Source: a virus | Lineage: Duplodnaviria > Heunggongvirae > Uroviricota > Caudoviricetes | Direction: 5' to 3' (one strand) | DNA: 28,293 bases | IMG/VR virus record: IMGVR_UViG_2667527592_000009 | Span: 1 to 28,293 of that record | Part shown: one piece after another, positions 3,504 to 23,989 of the stretch | Numbering within the stretch: the first letter of the stretch is position 1 | Layout of the letters: each line of letters begins with the position of its first letter | Made by a program: the position numbers and the translations under genes | Notes under the pieces: generated by a model | Database searches by the model: none | What the model was told of the DNA's origin: nothing | What the model saw: only the letters and a program-made list of their open reading frames with translations

Positions 3504-4136
3504 TCAAAGGCTCTTAATGATTTTCAGTGCACGGCCTACTACCTCAATGTCATCCAGGCCACACTCAAACGATGAATCATCCTGATGCACTACTAATCTG
3601 TTTCCCGGGAGTCGAGTCAATTTAACAATGCTTTTTATCCCGTCGATATCGACTAACCACATACCATTCACTGGTGGTGTTTGGTTGCGATCTATTAAAT
3701 AAGAATCACCAGAAGTAGTCACCAGCAGTAGGTTGCTTGAGTCTGAGGGGAGTATGCTGCTATCAATGATTGCTTTTCCAGCATCGACCAATAAACCACC
3801 GTTGAGAGTCGCCTTGTCAATTTCAGGAGATACTAGTTCAGAAAGAGGTACAACCTTGCTGGAGTTCACGGAATTGATATTTTTTTGGGGTTCAATGTTT
3901 GGACCTGGCTCCCCCTGTCCGGTGGTTAGCCACAGTAAAGAAACTCCTGTTTCCAAGGCGCACTGAATCACCCACTCTGCAGGAAAACTATCTCTTAAGT
4001 ATCTGTTTGCCATGGTGCTTTTTGATGCGCCTAAGTGATCGCAAAGTTGCTGTCTGGACTTGAAATCATAGGCTGCCATTAGTCTATGGATAGCTTCTCT
4101 TCCCCCTGTATTCTCTCCAGCCTTTACCTGTATCAT
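3504..4136 (-). CDS. cI: CI-type immunity repressor (186-like)
   Basis: 210-aa ORF immediately upstream of int on the same strand and divergent from the apl/cII lytic operon; helix-turn-helix-like N-terminal region; RBS AGGA upstream of ATG at 4136. Confidence 0.7.
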   Translation of the reverse strand: MIQVKAGENTGGREAIHRLMAAYDFKSRQQLCDHLGASKSTMANRYLRDSFPAEWVIQCALETGVSLLWLTTGQGEPGPNIEPQKNINSVNSSKVVPLSELVSPEIDKATLNGGLLVDAGKAIIDSSILPSDSSNLLLVTTSGDSYLIDRNQTPPVNGMWLVDIDGIKSIVKLTRLPGNRLVVHQDDSSFECGLDDIEVVGRALKIIKSL

Positions 4137-6331: not shown

Positions 6332-6630
6332 CAGGGGCTGTGCGTATCCATCAATTAAAAATTGCACCTAAGTATTTCAATGCTGTGGTTGCAGGTCAAA
6401 AGACGGCTGAACTTCGTAAAGACGATCGTGGCTATAAAGTTGGTGATGTTCTTTCTCTTTGCGAATGGAAGCATGGCGTATTTACGGGTAGGGAATGGGC
6501 CGCGGTTATCTCTCATGTGCTTCCGGTTAATGACGTCATGGCAGTTTCAGAACAATGGGTGATGCTATCAATTCGCTCATTAACCCCATTAGAAGCTTTA
6601 GGATATGTTATTGCAGGAGGTGCTGTATGA
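6328..6630 (+). CDS. ASCH/DUF3850-like small protein (putative RNA-binding fold)
   Basis: 100-aa ORF from ATG 6328 with RBS GGAGG; family assignment from recalled motif resemblance only; flanked by identical 15-nt junction repeats. Confidence 0.4.
6616..6630 (+). repeat. 15-nt direct repeat GGAGGTGCTGTATGA (copy 2, ASCH-like stop / Dam start junction)
   Basis: Exact match to 6317-6331; both upstream proteins end in GGAV*. Confidence 0.8.
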
Positions 6631-7484
6631 GCACCATCCTGAAATGGGCGGGAAATAAAACCGCAATTATGTCTGAACTGAAAAAACACCTTCCTGCTGG
6701 CCCGCGACTGGTTGAACCTTTCGCGGGTTCCTGTGCTGTGATGATGGAGACGGATTATCCAAGCTATCTGGTTGCGGATATTAATCCTGATTTAATCAAC
6801 CTCTATAAAAAGGTTGCCGCTGATTGTGAATCGTTTATATCTCGCGCCAGAGTTTTATTTAAGGAAGCAAACAGGGAGGTGGCTTATTACAACATAAGGC
6901 AGGAGTTTAATTACTCAAATGAAATTACTGATTTCATGAAAGCGGTATATTTCCTGTATCTCAATCGTCACGGTTACCGTGGTTTATGTCGCTATAACAA
7001 GAGCGGGCATTTCAACATTCCCTACGGTAATTATAAAAATCCGTATTTCCCAGAAAAAGAAATTCGCGCATTTGCAGAAAAAGCCCAGCGGGCAACGTTT
7101 ATCTGCGCCAGCTTTGATGAAACGCTGGCGATGTTGAAGGCGGAGGATGTGGTGTATTGCGATCCGCCGTATGACGGCACGTTTTCCGGTTATCACACTG
7201 ACGGCTTCACTGAAGATGACCAGTATCACCTGGCATCCGTTCTTGAACATCGGTCATCAGAAGGACATCCGGTCATTGTTTCTAACAGTGACACATCCCT
7301 GATCCGTTCGCTGTATCGCAATTTTACTCACCACTACATCAAGGCAAAACGCAGCATCGGTGTGGCAGCTGGCGAGGGTAAATCAGCAACAGAAATCATT
7401 GCTGTTTCCGGGCCGCGCTGCTGGGTGGGATTTGATTATTCGCGTGGCGTGGATAGTTCTGCCGTGTACGGAGTACGTGCATGA
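6627..7484 (+). CDS. dam: DNA adenine methyltransferase (Dam-like, GATC-type N6-adenine MTase)
   Basis: 285-aa product with KWAGNK (AdoMet binding) and DPPY catalytic motif, [15 protein letters not shown] block as in E. coli Dam; start overlaps previous stop and stop overlaps gene A start. Confidence 0.85.
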
Positions 7485-9895
7485 GTCATGCCGATATGAA
7501 CAACTGCTGCGGCTTTAACGAAGCTGCCGCATCGTTCTCATGGAACAGCCCGAAAAAGGCCATTAACCCTTATCTGGACCCGGCGGAAGTTGCGCCGGTT
7601 TCTACGCTTTCAAACCTGATCACTCTGTACGCTGCCGATAACGAGCAGGAACAGCTGCGCCGTGAGGCGCTGAGTGATCAGGTCTGGGAGCGTTATTTCT
7701 TTAATGAATCCCGTGATCCTGTCCAGCGCGAAATGGAGCAGGATAAGCTCATTAGTCGGGCAAAGCTGGCGCATGAGCAGCAGCGTTTTAACCCGGACAT
7801 GGTCATTCTGGCAGACGTCAGCGCCCAGCCCTCCCATATCAGCAAGCCGCTGATGCAACGTATTGAATACTTCAGCAGCCTTGGCAGGCCAAAGGCTTAT
7901 TCCCGCTATTTGCGTGAGACGATTAAGCCATGTCTGGAACGGCTGGAGCATGTACGCGACAGTCAGCTATCCACATCTTTTCGCTTTATGGCAAGCCATG
8001 AAGGGCTGGACGGCCTGCTGATTCTGCCTGAAATGAGTCAGGATCAGGTGAAACGCCTGTCCACCCTTGTTGCTGCGCATATGAGCATGTGCCTTGATGC
8101 AGCTTGTGGCGATTTGTATGCCACCGATGACGTTAAGCCAGAAGAAATCCGCAAGACATGGGAAAAGGTGGCAGCAGAAACCCTGCGACTGGATGTCATA
8201 CCGCCTGCGTTTGAGCAACTCCGCCGGAAAAGAAACCGCCGTAAACCCGTGCCATATGAACTCATTCCGGGTTCGCTGGCGCGTATGTTGTGCGCCGATT
8301 GGTGGTACCGGAAATTATGGAAGATGCGTTGCGAATGGCGGGAAGAGCAGTTGCGTGCTGTTTGCCTGGTCAGCAAAAAAGCATCTCCCTATGTCAGCTA
8401 TGAAGCCGTGATGCATAAACGTGAGCAGCGCCGTAAGTCGCTGGAGTTTTTCCGTTCTCATGAACTGGTGAACGAAGACGGCGACACGCTGGACATGGAG
8501 GATGTGGTAAACGCCAGCAGCAGCAACCCTGCGCATCGCCGCAATGAGATGATGGCCTGTGTTAAAGGTCTGGAGCTTATCGCGGAAATGCGCGGTGACT
8601 GCGCCGTTTTCTACACCATCACCTGTCCGTCACGTTTCCATTCCACGCTAAATAACGGCAGGCCCAACCCGACCTGGACAAATACGACGGTAAGACAAAG
8701 CAGTGATTATCTGGTCGGCATGTTTGCTGCATTTCGTAAGGCGATGCACAAAGCCGGATTGCGCTGGTATGGCGTGCGGGTGGCTGAGCCGCATCATGAC
8801 GGTACAGTTCACTGGCACCTGTTGTGTTTTATGAGCAAAAAAGATCGCCGCACCATTACTGCTTTGTTGCGTAAGTTTGCCATTCGTGAAGACCGCGAGG
8901 AGCTGGGTAATAACACGGGACCACGCTTTAAGTCTGAGCTGATAAACCCGCGCAAAGGTACGCCAACAAGCTACATCGCGAAATACATCAGTAAGAACAT
9001 TGACGGGCGTGGTCTGGCTGGCGAGATCAGCAAGGAAACGGGTAAATCCCTGCGTGATAACGCTGAATACGTTAATGCCTGGGCGTCTCTGCATCGTGTT
9101 CAGCAATTCCGCTTCTTTGGCATTCCGGGGCGTCAGGCTTACCGTGAACTGCGATTGCTGGCTGGTCAGGCGGCAAGGCAACAGGGGGACAAAAAAGCAG
9201 GTGCGCCGGTACTGGATAACCCGCGCCTTGATGCAATCCTGGCTGCTGCTGATGCTGGTTGTTTTGCCACCTACATCATGAAGCAGGGCGGCGTACTGGT
9301 TCCCCGCAAATATCACCTCATCAGAACTGCTTATGAAATCAACGAAGAACCGACCGCATATGGCGATCACGGTATTCGTATTTATGGCATCTGGTCACCC
9401 ATTGCAGAGGGCAAGATCTGCACTCATGCGGTGAAGTGGAAAATGGTTCGTAAGGCCGTTGACGTTCAGGAGGCGGCAGCCGACCAGGGCGCTTGCGCCC
9501 CTTGGACTCGTGGCAATAACTGTCCCCTTGCTGAAAATTTGAACCAACAAGGGAAAGACAAATCAGCTGATGGGGATACCAGAACGGACATTACCCGCAT
9601 GGATGACAAGGAGTTGCACGAATACCTGCACAGTATGAGCAAAAAAGAGCGCCGGGAACTGGCTGCAAGGTTACGCCTGGTGAAACCGAAACGGCGTAAA
9701 GACTACAAACAGCGAATTACAGACCATCAGCGACAGCAGCTCGTCTATGAACTGAAGTCCAGAGGATTTGATGGCAGCGAGAAAGAGGTCGATTTACTCC
9801 TTCGCGGCGGCAGTATTCCGTCAGGAGCAGGCCTGCGTATCTTCTATCGGAACCAGCGTTTGCAGGAAGATGATAAGTGGCGGAACCTGTATTAA
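7481..9895 (+). CDS. A: Replication initiation endonuclease, P2 gpA family (rolling-circle initiator)
   Basis: 804-aa ORF with HUH-like TVHWHLLCF and two-tyrosine YIAKYISK motifs; position after the early operon as in P2/186. Confidence 0.85.
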
Positions 9896-9987
9896 TTACG
9901 CGGGTTAACAATTCGTGCTCTTAATAATACCAGGCATTTCAGGCTGATGAACGTAAAAAAACGTTTTACATCAGTAAGATTATTATA

Positions 9988-10007
9988 TACTGTAAATATA
10001 AACAGTG
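9988..10007. promoter_or_regulatory. LexA (SOS) box TACTGTaaatataaACAGTG
   Basis: CTGT-N8-ACAG with AT-rich spacer, about 40 bp upstream of the ATG at 10048; a TTTACA -35-like hexamer lies at 9965-9970. Confidence 0.6.
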
Positions 10008-10047
10008 GTTATATGTACAGTATTTCTTTGGTGTCATAGGAGGAAAG

Positions 10048-10236
10048 ATGCAGGACTATTTTTTGGAGTCTTTGAAGCTCCAGCGCATTGATTTTTTTCT
10101 TAAGCTTGTAGCGGCTAGTGAGTGTAGTGATGAAGAGAAGGGGCTGGCTCTGCAGTGGGTTTCTGAATTGACTGATGAACTCATGGCAAAAATCAGAACC
10201 CACGAATACAACCGCTCAATGGATGTCATCAGCTGA
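10048..10236 (+). CDS. Small SOS-controlled protein (candidate antirepressor, Tum-position analogue)
   Basis: 62-aa ORF with strong RBS (TAGGAGGAAAG) downstream of the LexA box; first gene of a two-gene module with the DinI homologue. Confidence 0.45.
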   Translation: MQDYFLESLKLQRIDFFLKLVAASECSDEEKGLALQWVSELTDELMAKIRTHEYNRSMDVIS

Positions 10237-10246
10237 GGTGACCTTT

Positions 10247-10480
10247 ATGCGCATTGAAATAATGATCGATAAAGAGCAGAAGATTAGCCAGTCTACCCTG
10301 GACGCCCTTGAATCCGAGCTTTACCGCAATCTGCGCCCCCTGTATCCCAAAACGGTAATTCGCATCCGCAAAGGTAGCTCTAACGGTGTGGAACTGACCG
10401 GACTGCAACTGGACGAAGAAAGAAAACAAGTGATGAAGATTATGCAGAAGGTGTGGGAAGACGACAGCTGGCTGCATTAA
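10247..10480 (+). CDS. dinI: DinI-family protein (RecA co-protease modulator)
   Basis: 77-aa ORF MRIEIMIDK...DALESEL...WEDDSWLH aligns by eye with E. coli DinI (MRIEVTIAK...DALAGEL...WESADDW); RBS GAGGTG. Confidence 0.75.
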   Translation: MRIEIMIDKEQKISQSTLDALESELYRNLRPLYPKTVIRIRKGSSNGVELTGLQLDEERKQVMKIMQKVWEDDSWLH

Positions 10481-10639
10481 GAAAAGTTGCTGGCGTCTGA
10501 ACTTGGTTCTGGCGTCAGCAAGGTTGAACAACGAGTACAGTGAGGCGTTAGGTGTGGCGTTTATTTGATGAGTGAACGCCCGTTCTGCGACAGGTTCGGA
10601 GATTAAGGTTGAAACTACGGGCAAAATACCATCTTTTTC

Positions 10640-11065
10640 CTACTTAATTGAGTCCAGTAACAAGTTACAGTTACTCTCATTGTAGAGAGAACGAGCAATT
10701 AGTGTTACCTGCTTTCCATTCATTCCCGGCTTATCCCATAACACAGCTTCTTGCGACGCCACAAATTCAGCATAATCAATTATGCGTTGTTCGTGATCTG
10801 GTTCCTCATAGCCAAAGTATGAGAGCGCATCGTTGTAAGCGTGGTAAGCTGCTTTCTGTAATATCTTGATATCGGCTGTAGGTACTTGCTCCGTGTAGCT
10901 AGGATCTAATTGTGTGCTACTGCCATAGAATGCACATGAAAGGTAAGATATTGATTTCTGTTGAGCTTTAGTTCCTTTCTCATAGTTTTTAGCTGTTACC
11001 GCCTGAACTGGGACGCTAACAAAGCTTGCAACCAGAATTAAAATTAATACGTAAAAGCTTTTCAT
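10640..11065 (-). CDS. Hypothetical exported protein (signal peptide), moron near cos
   Basis: 141-aa ORF with N-terminal signal peptide MKSFYVLILILVASFVSVPVQA; RBS GAGG; opposite strand to neighbours. Confidence 0.55.
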   Translation of the reverse strand: MKSFYVLILILVASFVSVPVQAVTAKNYEKGTKAQQKSISYLSCAFYGSSTQLDPSYTEQVPTADIKILQKAAYHAYNDALSYFGYEEPDHEQRIIDYAEFVASQEAVLWDKPGMNGKQVTLIARSLYNESNCNLLLDSIK

Positions 11066-11338
11066 TTTGACCTCAGCCGAAACGTTAGAGAGACTATCGA
11101 AATTTGTAAAACCCGTGGCGATTCAGTTTGAGATCCTCCCCCTTACATGATTTTTAATCAAATATATGCTTTTGTAAGCATACCTGTTAACCGAATTATT
11201 TATTTTTAGAGATCTTCCGACATACTGATTATGCCCGCTGAGGAGTTCACCTTGCGTAAGGTCCGATTCGCTTTACTCGTCTGTGCATGTCTATGCTGCA
11301 TGAGATTGCATGATCGTTTGAGGATCGTTTTTGCTAAG

Positions 11339-11362
11339 GCCCGCCAGAACTGGCGGGCTTTT
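11339..11362 (+). terminator. Rho-independent terminator (plus strand), no obvious upstream gene
   Basis: GCCCGCCAG-aa-CTGGCGGGC followed by TTTT (11359-11362). Confidence 0.5.
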
Positions 11363-11407
11363 GCGTAGATCATGCACCTGCATGAAAACCACTACATAAA
11401 GCGGGCA

Positions 11408-11496: not shown

Positions 11497-11627
11497 GCGC
11501 ATGTAGGCAGATTTGTTGGTTGTGTATCACAACCAGTGATTTTAATGGCAGGTGGAATCGCATCCCTGACATCCTTGTTTCGTCGCTATAGGGCCGTTGT
11601 GCTGTGCGAAGGAGTGCCTACATGCGT
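11497..11627 (+). ncRNA. msr-msd: Retron msr/msd non-coding region (template for msDNA), flanked by a1/a2 inverted repeats
   Basis: 12-bp inverted repeats CGCATGTAGGCA (11498-11509) and TGCCTACATGCG (11615-11626) about 105 nt apart; G at 11510 is a branch-G candidate; internal stem TGGTTGTG-tat-CACAACCA (11517-11535); ends 38 nt before the RT start codon. Confidence 0.55.
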
Positions 11628-11665
11628 TCTTCCTCTCTTACTAACTTCTACGATAAAATATAATT

Positions 11666-13426
11666 ATGGTCGCAACTTCTAAATTACTACTTTTGAAAGT
11701 CGCAGCATCTCGTGCTGACTTGGCAAAATTGCTAGATGTTAAGTTGGTGTTTTTAACGAATATTCTTTACAGAATTGGTACTGATAATCAGTATAAAGAT
11801 TTCTCTATTCCAAAAAAAGGTAAGGGAGTCAGATTGATTTCTGCGCCAGAAGATAGTTTGAAAGATCTCCAAAGACGAATAGCCGATCTTTTAATGGAGT
11901 GTAGAGATGAAACTTTCAAAATTAAAAAAATTAAAAACAATTACTCCTTTGGTTTTGAAAGAAATAAGTCAATAATTTCCAATGCTTTCAGACATCGTGG
12001 GAAAAATATAATACTCAATATTGATCTTAAGGATTTTTTCAAAAGCTTTAATTTTGGGCGAGTGAGAGGGTACTTCCTATCCAATAGGGATTTCTTATTA
12101 AATCCGATTGTCGCCACTACTTTAGCTAAAGCCGCATGCTATAAGGGAAGTTTGCCTCAGGGTAGCCCGTGTTCTCCAGTGATAACAAACTTAATTTGTA
12201 GCATTATGGATATTAGATTAGCTAAATTAGCAAAGAGTTTAGGTTGTTCATATAGTCGTTATGCCGATGACATCACGTTTTCAACTAATAAAAAAGAATT
12301 TCCTACCGATTTGGCAATATCTCTTCCTGAGGGGGTTGTCTTGGGGAGCATTCTTGTCAGTGAAATAAAACGTGCTGGTTTTGATATTAATGATGCTAAA
12401 ACAAGGATCTCGTACAAATCCACGAGACAAGAAGTTACGGGACTTACTATAAATAGATTTGTTAACGTTGATAGGAAATATTCGAATAAAACAAGAGCAT
12501 TAGCTCATTCACTTTATAGTAAGGGAGAATATAAGCTACCTGATGAAGATGGTAAGCTAGTCGTGGGGAGTATCGAAAAACTAGAGGGAAGATTTGGGTT
12601 TATTGACCAGATTGATAAATTTAATAACATACAAGATAAAATAAGTAAACAGCCTGAAAAATATGCGCCTATTCATATTACATTAAAAAACTACAGGTTA
12701 AAGCTGAATGTACGAGAGAAGGCATATAGTAAATTTATTTACTACAAGTTTTTTCATGGACATGCTTCCCCGACAATCTTGACAGAAGGCAAAACTGATC
12801 GAGTATATTTAAAATCAGCTATTCGTTCACTTTCTGCCAAATTTCCTGAGTTGCTCAAGAAAAGCACAGACGGTAAAGGAAATGATATCAACTTGAATAT
12901 TTTTAAATCTGATGAGAAGTCAAGTTATTTTATTAATATGTCTGGAGGTAGCGCAGATCTTAAAAAATTCATCGAAAGATATATGGATGAATATTCAAGC
13001 TACTATGGAAGCATTCCTAAGCACCCGGTTATCATGGTATTGGACAACGATTCTGGTTCTAATGAGATTTTGAATTTCCTTAAAAATAATGTTAAGGGCT
13101 GCCCCGATGATACCAATAAAATGAGAAAAATGAGATTTATCCATGTCTTTAAAAATCTCTATATCATTCTAACGCCTTTAAGTGCTACTGGTGAGCAGAC
13201 TGCGATGGAAGATCTTTTTACTCATGATGTATTATCAACTATTCTTGGTGGTAAAAAATTTAACAAAAAGAACGATGGGGACTCAAAAACTGAATATGGG
13301 AAACATGTTTTCTCTGTGAAAGTAGTTAGGGATAAAAAACGAAAAGTTGATTTTAGTGGTTTTGAAATAATACTCAACACTTTTAAAGATGTTTTTGAAC
13401 ATTATAAAAAAATATGCAGCATATAG
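11666..13426 (+). CDS. ret: Retron reverse transcriptase fused to C-terminal TOPRIM (OLD-like) domain, Retron-Ec67 type
   Basis: 586 aa; RT motifs [25 protein letters not shown] (nt 12260-12271), VTGLTIN; C-terminal TOPRIM signatures ILTEGKTD and VLDNDSGS; AT-rich. Confidence 0.85.
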
Positions 13427-22288: not shown

Positions 22289-23989
22289 TTATTCAAGGTG
22301 ATTTGAAAGAGTAATTAATGGCTCAATCGGTTGGAACGCTTTTAAGGATGTTAATATGTTTTTAACTTCCTTTGATACGATAGATAACGGGTTGTCTGTT
22401 ACAGATAAGTAGGTGGTTAAATCTTGACCTGAAACACGGATAACATGTGGTAATATCGCAGTTATAACTGGTGTCCAAAGGTCGATTAAATCATCCAGAG
22501 AGTTATTTTTAGATAATGCTGTATCATATTTATATTTTATTTTCTTCTTGTTCAAAGGTTTATCTGTTAATTCTTCAAGTATTTCTCCGATGACGGATAT
22601 TAAAAAGAATCGAGACTTTAAATTTTGGAGGAATAATAAGTTATCCTCATCTACTTTAATTTTATTCTCTTTTGCACGGATTTGAGATTTTACTTTTTCT
22701 ATAGCTTTTGAAATAGTGTAAGCACATAAAATATGCTGGGCTTTCGAATCATGAAAGGCATTGTCATAGGCTGATTTTGTATCGAAAACGTAGTTTTTAC
22801 CTCTATTGGCGCTAACATAATCCCCATGTAACGCTATCAGCGGTTGAGCAACAGACTCAATGCCAAATAAAGAACCAGTATTTTCGAAGCCGCGTTTCAG
22901 TGAATATGTATAACCAAGAGTGGAAAATTCTTCTGCCACCTGTTTTTGTTCTGTGCTGTTAGAGTAGTGATCCCAGGTTGTAATATGATTCTGAGTATTA
23001 TTATACTGGACTATTTTTTTTACTTTGTCCGCATCATTACATTCAATAACCTTACAAAGGACTTTTAGGCCATCTAATTTTTGTATATCTTGAACTGAAC
23101 CAATAGAACCAGTGGTTTGAGCTCCATTTATGATTGAAACTCCTTCCAACAACCCTTTTTCTTTGTTGAATTTTGTTGTTAGGATTGATACACCATTGTT
23201 AAAGACAAAGAAGTCTTTTGGGGATGTTTCTGCGGTATTCTTAATTGATGAGTTTATTTTTCTTCTCTTATTTAATCCCATGAACCCCCTATAATTAGCA
23301 GAAAATAATTCTGCTCCATAATTTTTGTATAAATAATTTAGCCAAGTGCCGTTTGCAAAGCCAACATGTGAAGTCCAGCCATCACCTTGTACAGAATTTA
23401 TAAGTTCGCCATTGAACTTTATATTGTCAGTCACAACAATTTGTTGTGATAGCGCAATATACAATTTTTCAAGACTATTAACACCAAGTTCTCTGTAAGT
23501 TACCTCAATTTCTTTGTCTGCAAATCTACCTGCTAGATAGTCACGACAAGTTTCAAGCTCAGTTTTAACCTGCTCAGATTCGGCACAATTATGGATATAT
23601 AATAATTCAACAGCTTCAATTTCGTTATCATCAATTAATTTTCTAACCTCAGAAATTTTTGCTCTTAATTTTGCATTTGGAGACTCTCCTGAGCCTGCCA
23701 TAATCCACGCTAAAGCAGTGTTTAAGTCAGAAGCTTTATTTGCAGGCGCAACTATTTTAAGTGCTTGCTGATTGCAATAGTAACCCTGAGCAATAAATAA
23801 CGTTGAATTAATTACGGTAATGAAGTCTATTTTCTTATCGTTTCCACCATCAGTAAGTCCATCAGATGCTAGCTTATCAAAATCGGATTCATCTAAGTAA
23901 AGACCTAATGACCATAAAAGATGTGCGTTACTAGTCCCGTACTTTTCTAACAGGGAAGTTTTATTTTGCAGTTGTCTTAAGTGTTCCAT
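22289..23989 (-). CDS. Large AT-rich hypothetical protein, AIPR-like abortive-infection candidate (defence moron)
   Basis: 566-aa minus-strand ORF interrupting the otherwise contiguous S-V late-gene order; markedly AT-rich; own terminator; AIPR-family call is from recalled sequence character and is unverified. Confidence 0.5.
   Translation of the reverse strand: MEHLRQLQNKTSLLEKYGTSNAHLLWSLGLYLDESDFDKLASDGLTDGGNDKKIDFITVINSTLFIAQGYYCNQQALKIVAPANKASDLNTALAWIMAGSGESPNAKLRAKISEVRKLIDDNEIEAVELLYIHNCAESEQVKTELETCRDYLAGRFADKEIEVTYRELGVNSLEKLYIALSQQIVVTDNIKFNGELINSVQGDGWTSHVGFANGTWLNYLYKNYGAELFSANYRGFMGLNKRRKINSSIKNTAETSPKDFFVFNNGVSILTTKFNKEKGLLEGVSIINGAQTTGSIGSVQDIQKLDGLKVLCKVIECNDADKVKKIVQYNNTQNHITTWDHYSNSTEQKQVAEEFSTLGYTYSLKRGFENTGSLFGIESVAQPLIALHGDYVSANRGKNYVFDTKSAYDNAFHDSKAQHILCAYTISKAIEKVKSQIRAKENKIKVDEDNLLFLQNLKSRFFLISVIGEILEELTDKPLNKKKIKYKYDTALSKNNSLDDLIDLWTPVITAILPHVIRVSGQDLTTYLSVTDNPLSIVSKEVKNILTSLKAFQPIEPLITLSNHLE

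Follow-up and report, generated by a model that had tools for sequence, protein, structure and literature searches.

The region directly downstream of replication gene A in the prophage sequence analysed here is very probably the SOS-induction operon of a Fels-2-type prophage, in which a p95-like promoter would drive the bicistronic transcription of two small genes, tumA and tumB. The window, i.e. the whole stretch of 28,293 nt that was analysed, is a 186/P2-like (Peduoviridae) prophage. Its module is of the tumA-tumB or "split tum" type known from Fels-2 and PSP3 and represents an ordinary case of an arrangement that has already been described.

Gene A (7481-9895, plus strand; Pfam Phage_GPA at 2.6e-126) follows a Dam methylase gene (6627-7484, plus strand), and tumA, which starts at 10048, lies directly 3' of it after a spacer of 152 nt. 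This gene order is shared with 186, PSP3, Fels-2 and DuoHS. On its other side, tumB is followed by a minus-strand gene of unknown nature (141 aa) and by a retron of type I-C; searches against Rfam gave no family anywhere in the window, the sequence upstream of the retron RT included. The immunity repressor gene cI is situated on the minus strand at 3507-4136 and encodes a 186-type CI of 210 aa, the putative target of TumA. It matches the Pfam families Phage_CI_repr (5.5e-31) and Phage_CI_C (9.1e-28), no S24 peptidase domain was detected in it with Pfam, and it belongs to the non-cleavable 186 CI type. Since CI has no S24 autoprotease domain, RecA cannot inactivate it directly and an antirepressor is required. 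The module would decide on the DNA-damage inducibility of a very common enterobacterial prophage class, which is present in approximately one fifth of the complete E. coli genomes; the 681-nt module was found in 1,126 of 5,426 such genomes and in 67 phage records. The practical value is mostly one of annotation, namely that naming the 62-aa ORF tumA would allow better predictions of prophage inducibility, while our side observations bear on the tightness of induction gating and on the cross-talk between co-resident prophages.

Operator and putative promoter upstream of tumA

An earlier note on this DNA, made from the letters alone, had proposed a near-consensus SOS box about 40 bp in front of the 62-aa ORF. 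The box TACTGTAAATATAAACAGTG is indeed found to the base at 9988-10007 (no strand assigned), and 40 nt separate its 3' end from the ATG of tumA. We scored it with a position weight matrix (PWM) of 25 E. coli LexA sites, which range from 13.5 to 26.7 bits with a median of 20.4 bits. With 22.7 bits, this box 1 is the top LexA site of the 28.3-kb window, the next unrelated site scoring 8.3 bits, and 200 first-order Markov shuffles of the window all stayed below this value (best shuffle 19.3 bits). Moreover, it is the sole match in the window to TACTGT-N8-ACAGTR with at most one mismatch, for which 0.15 matches are expected by chance. Box 1 contains the CTG-N10-CAG core, is near to TACTG(TA)5CAGTA and scores within the range of known sites, as an SOS box of the E. 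coli type does. Hence, the near-consensus character stood up to the PWM check, and the LexA box is confirmed as a real observation that is not due to chance. Identical copies of box 1 exist in DuoHS of E. coli HS and in Fels-2, and a LexA box of 21-29 bits is located 18-48 nt upstream of tum or tumA in all 12 loci that we compared, which include fused, split and TumA-only forms.

The putative promoter was assigned only by analogy with the annotated p95 of phage 186. It consists of the -35 hexamer TTTACA (9965-9970, plus strand) and, 17 nt further downstream, the -10 hexamer TACTGT (9988-9993, plus strand), which is at the same time the left half-site of box 1. In p95 the annotated -10 hexamer is likewise TACTGT and coincides with the start of the LexA box, and TTTACA is placed relative to the box in the same way as the annotated -35 hexamer of p95 (TTCACA, 18-nt spacer). 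Nine of the 12 loci keep TTTACA or TTCACA at the same distance from the box; in PSP3 the hexamer reads TTCCCA, in ESSI-2 TTTACA is shifted 1 nt upstream, and in Yen 06.16-2 none is evident. A scan with the strict sigma-70 consensus between 9850 and 10700 called no promoter. The transcription start of tumA-tumB would, by the same analogy with p95, be expected at the corresponding place.

Two potential RNA structures flank the operon. Between the stop codon of gene A and the SOS promoter, an imperfect hairpin was predicted by RNA folding at 9943-9975 (plus strand; dG -12 kcal/mol, z -3.8 against shuffles), the 3' arm of which harbors the -35 hexamer. It has no canonical U-tract and was not called by a terminator scan of 9850-10700; it may act as a terminator or as an insulator against read-through from the early operon. 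Just 3' of tumB, a stem-loop at 10487-10521 (plus strand) is formed by a 16-nt inverted repeat with 81% complementarity. Its centroid energy is -21 kcal/mol for the stem-loop alone, the minimum free energy of the surrounding 83-nt stretch is -25.5 kcal/mol with a z of only -1.9, and a U-tract was not seen. These values point weakly to a possible, and weak, transcript end.

A second LexA-like box, CAGTGGTTATATGTACAGTA, was detected at 10003-10022 (again no strand). Its 13.9 bits make it the second-best PWM site of the whole window, a score close to the lowest ones among real sites, and its inner half-site reads GTG, not CTG. Box 2 is offset by +15 and shares 5 nt (CAGTG) with box 1, and the two boxes together form a 37-nt palindrome (9987-10023) whose arms are 89% complementary. 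A second box at +15, with 12-19 bits, is present in all seven Fels-2-type loci; it is absent in 186, PSP3, ESSI-2 and Yersinia 06.16-2, where instead a single, stronger box is found closer to the start.

As a side observation, the operator of tumA-tumB has the sequence layout of the colicin-type double overlapping SOS box, i.e. two boxes with the fixed +15 offset, and this feature may be under-described. The 45-nt operator matches approximately 1,200 plasmid records, mostly of small mobilizable Col plasmids. The operators of cea in ColE1 and of cna in ColN also comprise two LexA boxes with +15 offset that share CAGTG, and the 23-nt run CAGTGGTTATATGTACAGTATTT is identical between the window operator and these colicin E1 and colicin N double operators, whereas flanks and leader are unrelated. 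In the ColN plasmid the operator is found upstream of the annotated cna gene, and the ORF downstream of the ColE1 operator begins with what we take to be the N-terminus of colicin E1. The colicin operators drive a bacteriocin, whereas the window operator drives a prophage antirepressor. The colicin double operator binds two LexA dimers, by which expression becomes especially tight or is delayed, and it permits no detectable basal expression (PMC2994835). By analogy, the window operator could hold two LexA dimers at once, and a colicin-like avoidance of accidental, lethal expression would suit the promoter of an antirepressor.

The two genes and their relation to Tum of phage 186

The gene tumA (10048-10236, plus strand; stop codon TGA at 10234-10236) encodes a protein of 62 aa, which we predict to be an antirepressor of the prophage CI. 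The strong ribosome binding site claimed in front of the ORF is there as a Shine-Dalgarno sequence AGGAGG at 10038-10043 (plus strand), read directly from the sequence and conserved in relatives. Set against relatives whose proteins share 84-90% identity with TumA (SopEPhi, Klebsiella phi4.1, Yersinia MLG42), tumA shows dN/dS values of 0.06-0.12 at dS 0.5-1.3, which is as low as in the DinI gene next to it (0.03-0.10); both genes are thus under strong purifying selection. Furthermore, the tumA frame (+1) is the only one without stops across six relatives. Because of the low dN/dS and this sole open frame, the ORF is a real protein-coding gene; a leader peptide or a chance ORF was considered and is ruled out by the same two analyses. 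In a search of IMG/VR, TumA was 100% identical in all 80 loci of this biased set, which nevertheless comprise 19 nucleotide alleles with 14 of the 16 variable sites at third codon positions.

TumA is an acidic protein with 12 D and E compared to 7 K and R residues. Its homologues form 66 clusters among 1.84 billion representative proteins, nearly all of them stand-alone proteins of 50-100 aa. In almost all records TumA is labelled "hypothetical protein" or, wrongly, "levan regulatory protein". No family was found for it in PADLOC, Pfam or NCBIfam. AlphaFold2 (AF2), applied to a 28-sequence alignment, predicted a two-helix hairpin with pLDDT 88, in which helices 2-23 and 28-61 are joined by a loop with the conserved Cys26. 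A Foldseek comparison of this model with the PDB retrieved nothing beyond generic helical hairpins (best E 0.5), which is uninformative regarding the mechanism, and a sequence search of solved structures gave no match.

The second gene, tumB (10247-10480, plus strand), encodes the 77-aa DinI-family protein that had been noticed before as a DinI homologue downstream of the small ORF. It matches the Pfam family DinI (PF06183) with 81.3 bits (gathering cut-off 24.2) and E 6.6e-23 over profile positions 1-63 of 63, and the solved DinI structure 1GHH at 2.7e-6. A mechanical 101-aa ORF would begin at an upstream ATG (10175); this start was rejected in favor of the ATG at 10247 (MRIEI...). The start is preceded by a Shine-Dalgarno-like GAGGTG (10235-10240, plus strand), again read from the sequence. 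Since this motif overlaps the stop codon of tumA and the gap between both genes is 10 nt, translational coupling of tumA and tumB is plausible; Fels-2-type loci have gaps of 10-12 nt, PSP3 one of 3 nt. TumB is 100% identical to STM2726.1 of Fels-2, 78% to TumB of PSP3 and 42% to residues 71-146 of 186 Tum. Its identity to E. coli DinI is 30%, and against the NCBIfam equivalog of the host DinI orthologue (NF007893) it scored 42.7 bits, below the cut-off of 111. TumB is accordingly a phage DinI-like paralogue of the TumB type and not host DinI.

The record of phage 186 annotates p95, a LexA site starting at the -10 hexamer TACTGT, and the tum gene (146 aa), within which further in-frame starts are nested. 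The smallest of its products, initiated at GTG and 76 aa in length, is described as truncated Tum modulating SOS induction. TumB aligns to residues 71-145 of 186 Tum with 41% identity; hence it is the counterpart of the C-terminal half of Tum and of its nested GTG-initiated product. The earlier note had placed a DinI-like orf97 downstream of 186 tum. This has to be corrected, as the DinI-like part is Tum 71-145 itself, while orf97 is a separate 243-aa gene after tum without DinI similarity.

The relation of TumA to Tum becomes visible with profiles. The 28-sequence TumA family aligned to 186 Tum with an hhalign probability of 94.9% (E 4.5e-8), residues 3-44 on residues 3-44. Residues 1-71 of 186 Tum match phrog_698, to which TumA of the window belongs, at 6.1e-6 and phrog_8554 at 3.5e-12; TumA itself matches phrog_8554 at 2.4e-8 and phrog_1993, the group of PSP3 TumA, at 2.2e-3. 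Compared directly by profile, the window TumA and PSP3 TumA match weakly (E 0.0039, probability 8.6%), and pairwise BLASTP gave no alignment between TumA and 186 Tum, between TumA and PSP3 TumA, or between PSP3 TumA and 186 Tum. Thus, judged from profiles, TumA is homologous to the N-terminal, non-DinI half of 186 Tum. Because TumA matches the N-terminus of Tum and the DinI gene its C-terminal half, both genes together are best described as Tum split into two cistrons. The suggestion that the short ORF is a different antirepressor solution is therefore not upheld, given the homology to the N-terminal part of Tum and the split form known from PSP3, Fels-2 and HS. In contrast, the proposal of a LexA-controlled antirepressor cassette downstream of gene A that corresponds to the 186 tum locus agrees with position, box geometry and Tum homology.

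Proposed induction mechanism and alternative explanations

In phage 186, Tum is expressed from the LexA-regulated p95 and sequesters CI during induction (PMC7708051); it binds CI and blocks its operator binding (Shearwin et al., 1998, as cited in PMC3121763 and PMC7708051). A similar sequence of events can be proposed here. In the undamaged lysogen, LexA bound to the double operator (9988-10022) would mask the -10 hexamer together with the start region and hold the operon off. After DNA damage, RecA would become active and LexA would cleave itself, the promoter would fire and a bicistronic tumA-tumB mRNA would be made. TumA would then bind the non-cleavable 186-type CI stoichiometrically and prevent it from binding its operators, which would derepress pR and start the lytic cycle. 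TumB would be an accessory modulator, probably acting via RecA filaments or the strength of induction, and not the trigger; an action on RecA filaments or co-protease activity is suggested by its membership in the DinI family only.

Genetic evidence comes from prophage DuoHS. TumA is identical in 61 of 62 residues to ECHS_RS04495 of E. coli HS, a 189-bp gene annotated as "hypothetical protein" just upstream of the DinI-like ECHS_RS04500. According to the Phollow study of 2025, an in-frame deletion of this gene, which is called "tum" there, abolishes the mitomycin C induction of DuoHS, and lexA(Ind-) likewise does so (PMC12055606). It is conceivable that this deletion, because of translational coupling, has a polar effect on tumB.

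In one alternative, the real effector is TumB, or a Tum reconstituted from TumA and TumB, and TumA would be insufficient alone; it would only be an adaptor, or an upstream ORF through which tumB is translated. We consider this unlikely. It would agree with the presence of both halves in one polypeptide in 186, with the probable coupling given by the tumB Shine-Dalgarno sequence over the tumA stop codon, and with the conservation of tumB, which is as strong as that of tumA; moreover, the HS tum deletion is not described as non-polar on tumB in the accessible part of the study (PMC12055606). However, the antirepressor activity of PSP3 is reported to reside in the upstream gene (PMC3121763; PSP3 annotation). 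Our preferred view of TumB as an accessory protein is further based on three observations: LexA-boxed TumA-like ORFs without a following DinI gene exist in ESSI-2, ESSI2_ev040 and Yersinia phage 06.16-2; according to the annotation of 186, its nested DinI-only product modulates induction but does not cause it; and non-polar dinI deletions in Gifsy prophages left induction unaffected (PMC3121763).

Even less probable is the assumption that the cassette is mainly a host-directed "moron" which modulates the SOS response by tuning RecA or LexA activity for the benefit of the lysogen and which does not trigger induction. The DinI family does act on RecA filaments (PMC3121763), and TumB has the match to the DinI structure 1GHH mentioned above. 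The module also shows hardly any variation across its very wide distribution (1,126 of 5,426 E. coli genomes), and the same TumA allele occurs beside very different CI alleles. Nevertheless, such a role is difficult to reconcile with the E. coli HS data, in which the 98%-identical gene is needed for mitomycin C induction and in which its deletion is reported to abolish inducibility while the response of a host SOS reporter is unchanged (PMC12055606). Because of Fels-2, Salmonella LT2 does not survive lexA null mutations (PMC8072944), which also argues against a moron, as does the homology of TumA to the antirepressor half of 186 Tum. That the SOS box or the 62-aa ORF arose by chance, or that the ORF is an untranslated leader of the DinI gene, is hardly conceivable: the ORF is short, has no Pfam or NCBIfam family and is annotated as hypothetical almost everywhere, but the box score and the shuffles, the low dN/dS with the sole open frame (a conservation pattern that already refutes it), the 66 clusters of small homologues, the confident helical-hairpin model and the genetic phenotype reported for the HS orthologue (PMC12055606) all contradict it.

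If TumA is taken as the antirepressor, the question of its partner arises. The window CI is 96% identical to CI of Klebsiella phage Kp4845-2 and 85% to that of SopEPhi, compared to 58% for Fels-2 and 46-47% for DuoHS. Because the TumA allele was tested with the DuoHS CI, which is only 47% identical to the window CI, we infer the TumA-CI pairing in the window prophage by analogy.

The repressors that accompany TumA are a second side observation that may be under-described. TumA alleles of at least 98% identity pair with CIs that are only 40-58% identical to the window CI. Among seven such CIs the N-terminal HTH domains are 58-80% identical and the C-terminal domains only 23-57%, the latter divergence being about as large as that to the CI of 186 or PSP3; the N-terminal domains of the 186 and PSP3 CIs are 38-47% identical to this group. 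As the TumA type tracks the N-terminal domain of CI, these data, from a small sample that is not phylogenetically independent, suggest that TumA recognises this domain. It is a tentative and rather doubtful idea that the Fels-2-type TumA serves as a "master" antirepressor of divergent CIs and that its promoter acquired, or shares ancestry with, a colicin-type operator. If true, TumA would read the N-terminal HTH domain of CI and not the divergent C-terminal oligomerisation domain, one TumA allele would inactivate many divergent CIs and cross-induce co-resident P2-like prophages, and the double operator would demand more DNA damage than usual before induction sets in. Neither the "master" TumA nor the colicin-type operator was found stated in the searchable literature, and a search for TumA and TumB retrieved irrelevant papers only.

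Comparison with known systems

Lemire et al. (2011) described that Tum resembles an antirepressor fused to DinI (PMC3121763), and, as reported there, the tum genes of Fels-2 and PSP3 are split by a stop codon; the primary source for Fels-2 is Bunny, Liu & Roth (2002). The closest relatives of the window module are those of Fels-2 and DuoHS. They share the position after dam and gene A, TumA is 98% identical (STM2728 in Fels-2) and TumB 100%, and no difference occurs in the promoter or in either SOS box, apart from two bases in the spacer of the HS box 2. They differ in the downstream cargo, which is an orf97-like gene in Fels-2, a 225-aa hypothetical gene in HS and the 141-aa gene with the retron in the window.

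Phage 186 resembles the window in genomic position, promoter layout, type of the CI target and in the 44 N-terminal residues of Tum, which are homologous to TumA; the TumA-type identity is only about 21%. However, 186 makes one fused polypeptide with nested internal starts and has a single LexA box, whereas the window has two cistrons and a double box. In PSP3, tum is likewise split into two cistrons, which share one LexA-boxed promoter. Its record annotates tumA (60 aa) as "similar to 5' end 186 tum; UV induction of prophage" and tumB as "similar to dinI and 3' end of 186 tum". Yet PSP3 TumA is only about 22% identical to the window TumA, a homology seen through profiles only, and PSP3 has one near-consensus LexA box (28.7 bits) at 20 nt from the start instead of the double box. 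Finally, the gfoA/gftA operons of Gifsy-1, -2 and -3 likewise bring together, behind a LexA box, a DinI homologue and a small antirepressor that counters a non-cleavable repressor (PMC3121763), but they have the reversed order with dinI first, reside in lambdoid prophages and are directed against another repressor family.

TumA and its repressor partners

TumA, the 62-aa predicted antirepressor of the prophage (window 10048-10236), has no model in Pfam or NCBIfam, and it is labelled "hypothetical protein" in RefSeq and in most phage records, while the label "levan regulatory (domain) protein" appears in a single phage record and a single UniRef entry. There is an annotation gap for TumA, although a deletion phenotype has been published.

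The CI repressor gene of the window (3507-4136, minus strand) was compared with those of the loci L006, L002 and L096-L099. The CI partners of TumA alleles with at least 98% identity share only 40-58% identity with the window CI. This divergence is unevenly distributed, since the N-terminal HTH domains of these repressors are 58-80% identical, whereas their C-terminal domains reach only 23-57%. The combination of conserved N-terminal and divergent C-terminal CI domains under near-identical TumA suggests that TumA targets the N-terminal domain of CI, or else that recombination moves the module separately from the immunity genes.

TumA-like ORFs in other phages

LexA-boxed TumA-like ORFs without a DinI gene downstream were found in ESSI2_ev040 (locus L091, 601-813), ESSI-2 (L092, 601-~820) and Yersinia phage 06.16-2 (L093, 577-759). 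Because of these three phages, the antirepressor half is seen to occur not only fused, as in 186, or split, as in PSP3 and Fels-2, but also alone. The tumA of Escherichia phage 500465-1 (L090, 601-789) reads ...EERGWLCSGVSELT... in place of the ...EEKGLALQWVSELT... of other tumA genes, which looks like a compensated frameshift pair or a sequencing error, the rest of the gene being identical. In the same record the annotation of tumB, the DinI-family gene, is also longer (318 bp).

Genes downstream of the module and in the tail region

Between tumB and the retron, on the strand opposite to both, lies a 141-aa ORF (orf141; 10640-11065, minus strand) with a hydrophobic, signal-peptide-like N-terminus (MKSFYVLILILVASFVSVPVQA). 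Its sole match was phrog_7437, a family of unknown function, and neither Pfam nor PADLOC gave a hit. At this position Fels-2 has an orf97-like gene, and in E. coli HS a hypothetical gene of 225 aa is present. A hairpin rich in GC (GCCCGCCAG..CTGGCGGGC) with TTTT after it (11333-11364, plus strand) separates orf141 from the retron region and resembles an intrinsic terminator.

The retron region (11498-13426, plus strand) encodes a 586-aa reverse transcriptase (11666-13426, plus strand), assigned by PADLOC to the Ec67-like retron type I-C RT-Toprim (E 1e-212). Just 5' of it, a perfect 12-nt inverted repeat (11498-11509/11615-11626, 105 nt between the arms) resembles the a1/a2 repeats flanking msr-msd; Rfam found no family in this stretch. 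The prophage probably carries a second gene of defence cargo within the tail-gene region, a 566-aa ORF (22292-23989, minus strand) for which PADLOC gave a match to the abortive-infection protein AbiU (E 1.7e-24).

The tumA operator

Judged by its sequence, the tumA operator (9987-10023) consists of two overlapping SOS boxes, a double box of the colicin type. The putative second LexA-like site (10003-10022, offset +15) is kept in all seven Fels-2-type loci. The 45-nt operator has matches in approximately 1,200 plasmid records, and the operators of the colicins ColE1 and ColN share with it an identical run of 23 nt.
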